Positions 57,701 through 60,700 of a stretch of DNA of 64,000 nt are shown here, in pieces (within the stretch, counting starts at the first letter, position 1; the number at the start of each line of letters is the position of its first letter). Location of the stretch: NCBI RefSeq assembly GCF_054482595.1, contig NZ_CM137008.1; one strand, written 5' to 3'. Made by a program: the position numbers.

Positions 57701-60700
57701 CCTGAAGCAAACAAAGAAAAGAGTGACATTACTGAATTGCTCAGAAAACAGATCAGACCAGATTGAAGCAATTTAGATAATCGTGCAGACTACGCCCCTC
57801 ATATCACATGGAAGGTACTACAATGGCTCAGGTTGCCATTTTTAAACAAATATTCGATAAAGTGCGAAATAATTTAAACTATCACTGGTTTTATTCTGAA
57901 CTAAAACGTCACAATGTCTCACATTACATTTACTATTTAGCTACAGAGAATATTCATCTTGTTCTTGAAAACGATAATACGGTTTTAATAAAAGGACAGG
58001 GTAAGGTTGTAAATGTAAGATTTTCAAAAAATAAATGCCTTATAGAAGCCACCTTAAAAGGATTCAAATCAGGAGAGTTATCATTTTACGAATACAGGAA
58101 AAATCTTGCTACAGCAGGGGTTTTCAGATGGATTACAAATATCCACGAAAACAAAAGGTATTACTATACCTTTGATAATTCATTACTCTTTACTGAGAAC
58201 ATTCAGAACACTACACAAATATTTCCGCACTAAATCATAACGTCCGGTTTCTTCCGTGCCAGAACCGGACTCGCTGGCATGATGAAATATGTGTACCCGG
58301 TAACCCCGGTGTGCATCGTTTTTGATTATTCCCGCACACTCGCGCAGAAGGAGTTCCCCGTCGGGCTACGGTCTCTGTTAATACGGGAATACGGCGACGA
58401 TACAGCGCATGATGTGTCAGGCTTGAATACCTTTATCCTTTAAAAGGGATATCAGTTAAGTTATCCCGTGTAGGGTATAAACCATTATCAAAGCCACTCT
58501 GTAGGAAGTGGCTTTTGTAATGGCAATAAAAAGCCCCGCGAATGCGAGGCTAAATCCTGGTATTTGTAATGACTGGCTCTTATCTCAACGCAGCCCCTTA
58601 CCGCGCGCAAAATGCTCAATATCAAGCATCAGCAATGAGATGTTTAATCTGGATTCACTCCAGAAGTGAGCACCACCCTGTCTACAGAGCCAGATGTGAA
58701 GGATGATGAGTAAAATTATCGCTATCATCGAAGGCATTGCGTCCTGATGTATTCCTGAAGCGTTCTCAGTGCTGTTTGGTCGCGGATAATTCCGTCCCGG
58801 ATACCGAGAACGTTTCGTCCAGCAACTGGAGAGAGTTCGACGGTGGCATCATTGCCCATGCCGGAGGCGCTGGAGGTTTCAGCTGAGGATGGCACAGGGC
58901 ATTTTCCTTTGACGAGCACCCGACCACCATTATCAAGCTTGCGCCGAAGAGCATCATTTTCAGCTTTCGCATCAGCTAACTCCTTCGTGTATTTATCATC
59001 GAGTGCATCAGCATCACGCTGGCGCTGCTGCATGTGAGTAATGGTGGCGTTCGCCTTCTCCAGTTCACTGGCCTTGTTATCGCGCTGTTCTTTGTAGGCG
59101 ATTGCATTATCACGGTAATGATTAACAGCCCATGACAGGCAGACGATGATGCAGATAACCAGAGCGGAGATAATCGCGGTTACCCTGCTCATTGTTGCCC
59201 CCACAAACAGACCTCACGCTCAATCTCACGACGAGTCATCAGGCCTTTCCATTGCTTACCGCCAGCGTATGCCCAGCGACGTAGCTGGTCACATGCGCCC
59301 TTGATATCGCCCTGGTTTATTTTGCGAAGAAGAGTAGATGTTCTGAAATTGCCTGCGCCCACGTTATAGACGAACGAGTAAAGAGCGCCGCGCGTTGTTT
59401 CCGGTATATCGACTTTGATGTACGGGTTAATTTGTCTGGCTACCGTGGCAAGGTCTTTATTCAGGAGGGCTTTGCATTCTGCTTCGGTATACGTTTTACC
59501 GGGAATGATGTCTTTTCCTGTATGCCCGTGACATACAGTCCATACGCCAACGATATCTTTGTATGGTATGTAGCTGACACCTTCCAGACCATCGTTACCA
59601 CTTGGCCCAGTGATTAACACAGATGCTATAGCAATAGCCCCGCCACTTATCGCCGCTATTACGCTATTTCGTAGTGCCGGTGACATTGCCATTCAATCTG
59701 TCCTCGCGCTCTTTGCGCTTGTAGTACCAGTTGATGCCAAATGTGCCGACAGTACAAAGAATACCAATGATGACAGCCCAGTCATTCAGGGAGAGAATGC
59801 CACCCATCGCAGTCAGTCCTCCGAAGCTGTAACTGAACCATTCTCTGATTTTGTCCATACGGTACATGCTCTACCCCTTCATTGAGGGGATTTGCTCTAT
59901 TTAATTAGGAATAAGGTCGATTACTGATAGAACAAATCCAGGCTACTGTATTTAGTAATCAGATTTGTTCGTGACCGATATGCACGGGCAAAACGGCAGG
60001 AGGTTGTTAGCGCAGCCTCTTGCCACCCGCTTTCACGAAGGTCATATGTAGAAGGCCGCAGCATAACTATCACTGATGAGTTCAGGATAACCAGTGGCTA
60101 CGGCTCAGTTTGGGTTGTGCTGTTGCTGGGCGGCGATGACGCCTGTACGCATTTGGTGATCCGGTTCTGCTTCCGGCATTCGCTTAATTCAGCACAAAAG
60201 GAAGAGCGCTAGTCTACCTCTATCGATTAACGGGCTTGTGGGGCAGTATCGCCGATTCACCTAACGCTCTTCCCTTTGTGATTGTAACGCAAAAAGCCCC
60301 GAGCTATTAACTCAGGGCTTTATTTAACGAGTGCATTTATCCATCGTTGAGTCAAATTTACCCAATTTTATTCAATAAGTCAATATCATGCCGTTAATAT
60401 GTTGCCATCCGTGGCAATCATGCTGCTAACGTGTGACCGCATTCAAAATATTATCTGCGATTGACTCTTCTTTGTGGCATTGCACCACCAGAGCGTCATA
60501 CAGCGGCTTAACAGTGCGTGACCAGGTGGGTTGGGTAAGGTTTGGGATTAGCATCGTCACAGCGCGATATGCTGCGCTTGCTGGCATCCTTGAATAGCCG
60601 ACGCCTTTGCATCTTCCGCACTCTTTCTCGACAACTCTCCCCCACTGCTCTGTTTTGGCTATATCAACCGCACGACCTGTACCGTGGCAATCTCTGCATC

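Follow-up and report, generated by a model that had tools for sequence, protein, structure and literature searches.

Holin, endolysin and spanin genes behind a lambda-allele Q gene in a prophage of Escherichia coli

The 64,000-nucleotide (nt) stretch of DNA analysed here (the window; RefSeq assembly GCF_054482595.1, contig NZ_CM137008.1, with positions counted from its first letter) contains a lysis region that very probably belongs to an intact, lambda-like prophage of Escherichia coli, and in which a lysis cassette of the ST104/SPN9CC/PS119 type, common in the P22-like phages of Salmonella, lies behind lambda's allele of the antiterminator gene Q. All genes of the region are located on the minus strand in the order of the lambda late operon, and the open reading frames (ORFs) of Q, the holin, the endolysin, Rz and Rz1 are all intact. 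Similarity was measured by DNA and protein homology, and the E-values lie far beyond chance. A sequence-only reading had placed a swap of the lysis cassette at 59189..59867, and these coordinates exactly match the outer ends of the two ORFs for holin and endolysin. The cassette is already known and is new neither in kind nor as an instance.

Relatives, late control and mosaic joints

The segment 60110..58732, which takes in the region upstream of the holin gene, the holin and endolysin genes and Rz/Rz1, is contiguous with the corresponding part of Salmonella phage SPN9CC at 95.4 % nt identity. A holin-specific segment of 184 nt recurs, with an identity of 97-100 %, in 39 phage records, of which 31 come from Salmonella phages and which include ST104, SE1, BTP1, PS119, PS34, SPN9CC and Emek; in many of the 39 records the gene is annotated as encoding a 'class II holin'. 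The likeness to ST104, SE1, SPN9CC, PS119 and BTP1 (genes 13, 19, 15 and Rz1) is that of a contiguous cassette, the endolysin being 93 % identical to that of SPN9CC with residues 1-30 identical. These P22-like Salmonella phages are podoviruses that mostly carry another Q allele and have tRNA genes upstream of the cassette (SPN9CC), whereas the setting here is a lambda-type siphovirus prophage with the Q of lambda. In SPN9CC and phage L the tRNA genes lie between Q and the holin gene; the window has none, ARAGORN returning 0 tRNAs for its whole length.

A lambda-type Q and pR' combined with this holin and a lysozyme are present in PS34 (AJ011580: genes 23, 13 and 19), Emek, VSe13 and Klebsiella phage phiKp_30. 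PS34 and Emek have the same lambda-allele Q, pR', short tR', holin and SAR (signal-arrest-release) lysozyme as the window, at 95-96 % nt identity for the Q region and 94-97.5 % for the holin-endolysin part. They differ from it in the Rz/Rz1 allele, which diverges after the first ~116 nt, and they are without a lambda-like segment of ~240 nt (60277..60041). A search of 5426 complete E. coli genomes located the holin segment in 83. The full block from Q to Rz is covered for at least 80 % in 26 genomes, and copies with 100 % identity are present in E. coli EC5502, where the holin bears the name 'HP1 family phage holin', and in pSM107_MCR. As the same combination has been deposited (PS34) and is also found in Emek, phiKp_30 and annotated RefSeq E. 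coli genomes, the window does not provide a new example of it. A review (PMC6139136) deals with the paradigm of pinholin and SAR endolysin and with the spanin families, those of PS34 and Emek included.

The control of late transcription is of the lambda type, as the sequence-only reading had claimed. Q is identical to lambda Q in 206 of 207 residues, and the window is 97.8 % identical to lambda 43875..44609 over 61059..60326. The pR' hexamers were located by a promoter scan, the stretch with pR' and qut, including the Q-binding region between -35 and -10, is identical to that of lambda in the alignment, and the region is thus a member of the lambda Q/pR'/qut antitermination module. The AACGAT sequence at 60348..60343 presumably is the sigma-70 promoter-proximal pause element of lambda pR', and the Q/pR' allele is that of lambda and not that of phage 21. 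The ~235-nt body of the lambda 6S RNA (44610..44844) has no counterpart in the window. A shorter segment stands in its place. At the end near the promoter, to about 60278-60291, it matches PS34, HK620 and Emek, and it carries a strong terminator of the PS34/HK620 type, unlike that of lambda. The hairpin of this tR'-like terminator folds at -23.4 kcal/mol (z = -4.43), none of 200 shuffled sequences being equally stable, and the Emek record has both qut and a terminator annotated at homologous positions. A scan of 56000..64000 against Rfam (E ≤ 0.1) gave 0 matches, so that the pR' leader falls in no curated RNA family.

Further downstream, the similarity to lambda extends up to the ATG of S, including the stem-loop just upstream of it, and beyond this ATG the aligned sequences are unrelated. 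It restarts at the ATG of Rz (window 59192, lambda 45966), with 88 % identity between window 59192..58945 and lambda 45966..46213. The non-lambda block therefore comprises 59871..59193, within a few nt of start codons, and the earlier statement that junctions and gene boundaries coincide holds when the comparison is with lambda, the joints being at the start codons of S and Rz. Two more joints are absent from the sequence-only reading. The similarity to the phage-21-like cassette of DLP12 (89.6 % nt identity) starts at window 59687, the ATG equivalent to that of RrrD, and runs into Rz, leaving the holin gene outside; holin and endolysin are thus separate modules relative to phage 21. The lambda and DLP12 similarities both stop at 58945, ~250 nt into Rz and just beyond the start of Rz1, from where the sequence follows HK620 (95.5 % over 59192..58526) and SPN9CC. 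The stop codon of the endolysin gene and the start codon of Rz overlap as ATGA, the same as in lambda. The holin frame overlaps the endolysin gene, which is read in another frame, by 23-29 nt (59664..59692, minus strand), and consequently the last eight or nine holin codons lie in DNA that also encodes the start of the SAR endolysin. Mosaic joints at the start codons of S, R and Rz are the usual result of the exchange of modules between lambdoid phages.

Table 1 Features of the lysis region and adjoining late genes, in the order of transcription (window positions)
Feature	Position	Strand	Remarks
ninH	61234..61046	-	
Q antiterminator, lambda allele	60426..61049	-	PF03589 Antiterm, 192.3 bits
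pR' with qut elements	60343..60383	-	-35 TTGACT 60383..60378; -10 TAAATT 60360..60355; -10-like AACGAT 60348..60343
tR'-like intrinsic terminator	60288..60321	-	13-bp stem AAAGCCCUGAGUU/AGCUCGGGGCUUU at 60321..60293, followed by a U-tract
Non-coding stretch between Q and the 67-aa holin ORF			558 nt
Lambda-type untranslated region before the holin gene	59872..60210	-	93.5 % identity to lambda 44845..45181
sdi-like stem-loop CCCCU-CAAUGA-AGGGG	59874..59889	-	3' arm is the Shine-Dalgarno sequence of the first holin start
Holin, HP1 family, class II	59664..59867	-	67 aa, begins MYRM; starts Met1 (59867) and Met4 (59858)
SAR endolysin, R21/RrrD type	59189..59692	-	167 aa, or 165 aa from ATG 59686; overlaps the 3' end of the holin gene by 29 or 23 nt
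Rz i-spanin	58725..59192	-	PF03245, 101.1 bits
Rz1 o-spanin lipoprotein, within Rz in another frame	58766..58972	-	PF06085, 76.7 bits; lipobox-like VVGC
Intrinsic-terminator-like hairpin downstream of the lysis genes	58532..58551	-	terminator scan; fold z = -2.75
Nu1	57144..56599	-	after two genes on the opposite strand
Terminase A	56624..54699	-	

Holin, endolysin and spanins

The holin matches PF16080 (Phage_holin_2_3) with 75.1 bits against a cut-off of 28.8, over profile positions 1-49 of 56. It belongs to phrog_20 of PHROGs, and the identical protein is called 'HP1 family phage holin' by the Prokaryotic Genome Annotation Pipeline (PGAP). All but one of its 67 residues are identical in gp13 of PS34, and PF16080 was recognised in all the holin relatives listed, except for one weak partial match. 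No NCBIfam model matches the holin or Rz1, and a search of the Protein Data Bank sequences with the holin gave chance matches only (E > 0.5). With lambda S, BLASTP produced no alignment at E ≤ 100, and PF05106, which recognises lambda S with 105 bits, does not match the holin.

The hydrophobic core of the protein comprises ~40 amino acid (aa) residues (10-49), is divided by an LND turn and is followed by a C-terminal tail with a net charge of +3. The first transmembrane domain (TMD1, residues 10-27) consists for 50 % of Gly, Ala, Ser or Thr and is weakly hydrophobic while TMD2 (residues 30-49) is strongly hydrophobic, the same pattern as in EssD and S21. A model made by AlphaFold2 from an alignment of 66 sequences predicts a two-helix hairpin, with helices at 4-22 and 28-63 and predicted local distance difference test (pLDDT) values of 82-85 over TMD2. 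The architecture of two TMDs, a short turn and a charged tail is kept across the 66 diverse members of the HP1 family. The dual-start motif M-x-R-M is present in 18 of 24 close relatives, and five of the remaining six are annotated from the second Met; the signature reads MYRM in the holin and MKSM in EssD, and the longer form gains positive charge. The description of a short holin with two TMDs and a dual start, distinct from that of lambda, was borne out by the two predicted helices, the motif and the lack of similarity to lambda S, and the model gives two helices instead of the three TMDs of a lambda-S-like class I holin.

The comparison with phage 21 S21 gave a divided result. The holin scores 19.5 bits with PF04971, the family of S21, below the cut-off of 26, and BLASTP against EssD yields E = 0.024 over 27 aa; comparison by hhalign of the HP1-family alignment (66 sequences) with an S21-family alignment (19 sequences), however, gives 96.9 % with E = 2e-10 over 58 columns. 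By these profile comparisons the holin is to be regarded as a remote homologue of S21 that stands outside the S21 family, so that the kinship is one of remote homology and not of family membership.

The endolysin, a GH24 lysozyme, belongs to PF00959 (Phage_lysozyme, 155.7 bits) and phrog_7. Over 165 aa it differs in about ten substitutions (~94 % identity) from R21 (3HDE, E = 3e-104) and from RrrD (4ZPU, E = 4e-105), of which the structures have been solved; 3HDF is the SAR-less form of R21. The E37-X8-D46-X5-T52 triad (167-aa numbering) is intact and aligned with the identical residues of 3HDE and 4ZPU. Residues 10-29, preceded by an Arg, consist for 60 % of Gly, Ala, Ser or Thr as compared to 65 % in R21/RrrD, and 20 of the 26 N-terminal SAR residues are identical to those of R21. 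The first 30 residues contain no Cys, which points to the refolding type of R21 rather than to the disulfide isomerisation of P1 Lyz, to which (1XJT) the protein is only a distant match (E = 2e-9). Similarity to lambda R could not be detected. An endolysin of the T4 lysozyme type with an N-terminal SAR-like helix, as read earlier from the DNA, was thereby confirmed, and the proposed alignments with R21 and P1 Lyz single out R21 as the close relative. According to a summary (PMC8532960) of the work of Lim et al. (2014), deletion of the N-terminal SAR region of the SPN9CC endolysin abolished its activity. By analogy with R21, RrrD and the SPN9CC enzyme, the endolysin can with high confidence be expected to be exported by Sec, tethered to the membrane and triggered to refold by depolarisation.

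Rz and Rz1 form an embedded, two-component spanin pair (phrog_13 and phrog_3198 in PHROGs, Rz1 being phrog_3198) that is not the lambda allele. Identity to the lambda proteins amounts to 61 % for Rz and 47 % for Rz1; in Rz the ~84 residues at the N-terminus are close, whereas the periplasmic C-terminal half is divergent. Rz is, on the other hand, 92 % identical to HK620 Rz, and on these figures Rz and Rz1 were rejected as lambda alleles. The lambda-like nature ascribed to the pair thus stands for the family, the architecture and the first ~84 codons of Rz, and not for the allele. The Emek record annotates a terminator after its Rz. A 50-aa ORF with a hydrophobic N-terminus (58585..58737, minus strand) overlaps the stop codon of Rz. 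It matches phrog_11822, to which no function is assigned there, over its full length and is called 'hypothetical' by PGAP; the surrounding DNA is common to HK620, and the terminator-like hairpin at 58551..58532 follows. The ORF could encode an accessory membrane protein of the lysis cassette.

Resemblances and differences with respect to the known lysis systems can be drawn as follows. Phage 21 (EssD and RrrD in DLP12) shares with the window the endolysin, at ~94 % identity and with the same SAR helix and triad, as well as the dual start, the TMD1/TMD2 pattern and the charged C-terminal tail of the holin, but the window holin is a PF16080 and not a PF04971 protein, its inter-TMD loop is shorter, and holin and endolysin genes overlap by 23-29 nt versus 1 nt in DLP12. 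In HP1 the genes hol and lys overlap too and encode a holin of the same Pfam family, via which the likeness is drawn, and a SAR lysozyme partner. HP1, however, is a P2-like myovirus, and its Hol, of 78 aa, lacks a dual start, is not known to have an antiholin and was reported to be oriented C-out upon overexpression. With lambda S-R-Rz-Rz1 the region has in common the gene order, the control by Q and pR', the upstream sdi stem-loop, the dual-start logic, the ATGA coupling and the embedded Rz1, whereas S is a 107-aa class I holin with three TMDs (PF05106) and R a soluble transglycosylase, neither of which is similar to the proteins of the window.

Probable course of lysis and alternatives

The sdi-type stem-loop of lambda sets the S107:S105 ratio. 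The stem-loop at 59889..59874, which is predicted to fold and is common to PS34, aligns with lambda CCCCUUAUUGGGGG upstream of S; the region reads CCCCTTATTGGGGG in lambda and CCCCTCAATGAAGGGG in the window and PS34, and we take its role to be that of the lambda sdi. In the proposed course of events, the lambda-allele Q would act at pR'/qut and allow read-through of the short tR'. Downstream of the stem-loop both starts of the holin gene would be used, Met1 for a putative antiholin with the extra Arg3 and Met4 for the putative holin. The R21-type lysozyme would meanwhile be exported by Sec, its SAR helix keeping it inactive at the periplasmic side of the inner membrane. At the programmed time the holin would depolarise the membrane. 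Small pinholes, which have been shown for the related S21 and HP1 Hol, are the most likely means. The SAR helix would thereupon leave the bilayer, and the enzyme would refold and degrade the murein. Fusion of the membranes by the Rz/Rz1 spanin pair would finally disrupt the outer membrane.

That the holin makes small, depolarising holes and that its Met1 form, with Arg3, serves as antiholin is probable, at moderate confidence, by analogy with the remote homologues S21 and HP1 Hol. The composition of TMD1, one half of which is Gly, Ala, Ser or Thr and which is less hydrophobic than TMD2, is consistent with small, heptameric pinholes (~2 nm) of the S21 kind and with exit of TMD1 from the membrane. 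HP1 Hol kills cells without lysing them, does not bring about release of β-galactosidase and is needed for phage release alongside a SAR endolysin, which is the behaviour of a pinholin (PMC7312051). Several points weigh against carrying these properties over to the window. The holin model is of moderate confidence, with a mean pLDDT of 67.6. HP1 Hol is without a dual start and showed an unusual C-out topology upon overexpression (PMC7312051), so that transfer of a mechanism within the family is not guaranteed, and small-hole rather than large-hole behaviour would be borrowed here from remote relatives. The endolysin, moreover, has two candidate starts: ATG 59692 is preceded by GAGGA eight nt upstream, while PGAP and the alignment with R21 favour ATG 59686, which gives a protein of 165 aa. 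A more tentative idea, held with somewhat less than even confidence, is that the enterobacterial holins of the HP1 family, unlike HP1 Hol, form a genuine antiholin/pinholin pair from M-x-R-M behind an sdi-type stem-loop and so make use of a shared cis-acting timer. Because the joint with lambda lies exactly at the start codon, nonhomologous holin genes would then share one such translational timer.

SAR endolysins need only depolarisation, and the type of holin is not constrained by such a partner. A canonical holin with two TMDs that makes large holes would, like any hole, collapse the proton motive force and still trigger the endolysin, and the score of the holin below the Pfam cut-off of the S21 family (19.5 against 26 bits) agrees with such a protein. 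Both characterised relatives, S21 by hhalign and HP1 Hol by its Pfam family, are pinholins, however, and a weakly hydrophobic, SAR-like TMD1 in a protein with only ~40 hydrophobic residues does not suit it, which renders a large-hole holin rather improbable. Far less likely still is that a phage-21-like phage supplied holin and endolysin together, as one unit. The endolysin, at ~94 % identity to R21/RrrD, and the 89.6 % nt identity to DLP12 from the start of R into Rz would fit such an origin, and the sequence-only reading had implied as much. The similarity to DLP12, however, does not extend to the holin, having its start exactly at the ATG of the endolysin (window 59687). The holin belongs to another Pfam family than S21/EssD (BLASTP E = 0.024), and the contiguous match of 95 % is to the P22-like phages of Salmonella; the joint origin from phage 21 was rejected on the position of the R ATG. 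Many lysis cassettes of E. coli prophages, such as that of DLP12, are cryptic, and the one described here might likewise be the inert remnant of a decaying prophage that is no longer lytic. This is most unlikely of all, since the five lysis ORFs, Q, promoter and terminators have all remained intact; a copy in a plasmid gene agrees with the prophage at 99.5 % identity for no less than 25 kb, indicative of recent mobility, and unrelated strains carry the cassette at 100 % identity. A P22-like Salmonella phage cassette in an intact lambda-like prophage accordingly is the preferred explanation.

Prophage setting and meaning

The part of the window from 1 to ~29600 is E. coli chromosome, with rutG, yccE, an IS3-family element, torDAC, torR and torT, the latter adjoining the late end of the prophage. 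From 38700 to 64000 the window agrees at 99.5 % identity, for 25 kb or more, with a lambda-like prophage in pSM107_MCR (NZ_CP130669.1, 111 kb), an mcr plasmid in which the prophage splits a thermonuclease gene into two partial coding sequences. The same phage is thus found at two sites, next to torT in the chromosome and in a thermonuclease gene on a resistance plasmid, and the near-identical copy inserted in a plasmid gene implies recent mobility. The IS3-family transposase gene of the chromosomal flank (21182..22087, minus strand; rve domains) lies in the yccE-torD interval. For 14000..24000, even the best matches in E. coli reach only ~97 % identity and are broken into several pieces.

Between torT and a tail-fibre-assembly gene lie three ORFs on the plus strand, opposite to the late operon: 30227..30829 (200 aa), 31173..32210 (345 aa) and 32618..33877 (419 aa), the last in DNA of 30-33 % GC. 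None of the three has a match in PADLOC or NCBIfam, and a Pfam scan of the 345- and 419-aa ORFs gave none either. As the prophage copy on the plasmid has them as 'hypothetical' too, they appear to be cargo of the prophage end and are possible candidates for defence or moron genes. Two further plus-strand genes lie between the lysis cassette and Nu1, namely a YlcI/YnfO (DUF3950) gene (57533..57766) and a DUF1398 gene (57808..58233) with 82.5 % nt identity to lambda 'p78' (47042..47575). The bor gene, present in lambda and DLP12, is absent here. The nin region tracks HK620 (96.8 % over 62000..60291) and not lambda. It contains genes for a KilAC/Ant-type antirepressor (Roi-like) and a protein with a PAPS-reductase domain (61880..62602 and 63081..63983, both on the minus strand), RusA (61231..61593) and a DUF1364/HNH-like ORF (61590..61778).

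In conclusion, beyond its correct annotation the region matters little. The cassette is mainly a module of the P22-like phages of Salmonella that occurs in few E. coli genomes, and both the exact cassette and its combination with lambda-type Q can already be found in GenBank (PS34, Emek, SPN9CC, ST104) as well as in annotated RefSeq genomes of E. coli. The region exemplifies the textbook rule by which lambdoid phages swap their lysis genes in modules the size of a gene, joined at start codons, and it indicates that a system of the pinholin/SAR-endolysin type can run under the control of lambda Q and pR'.

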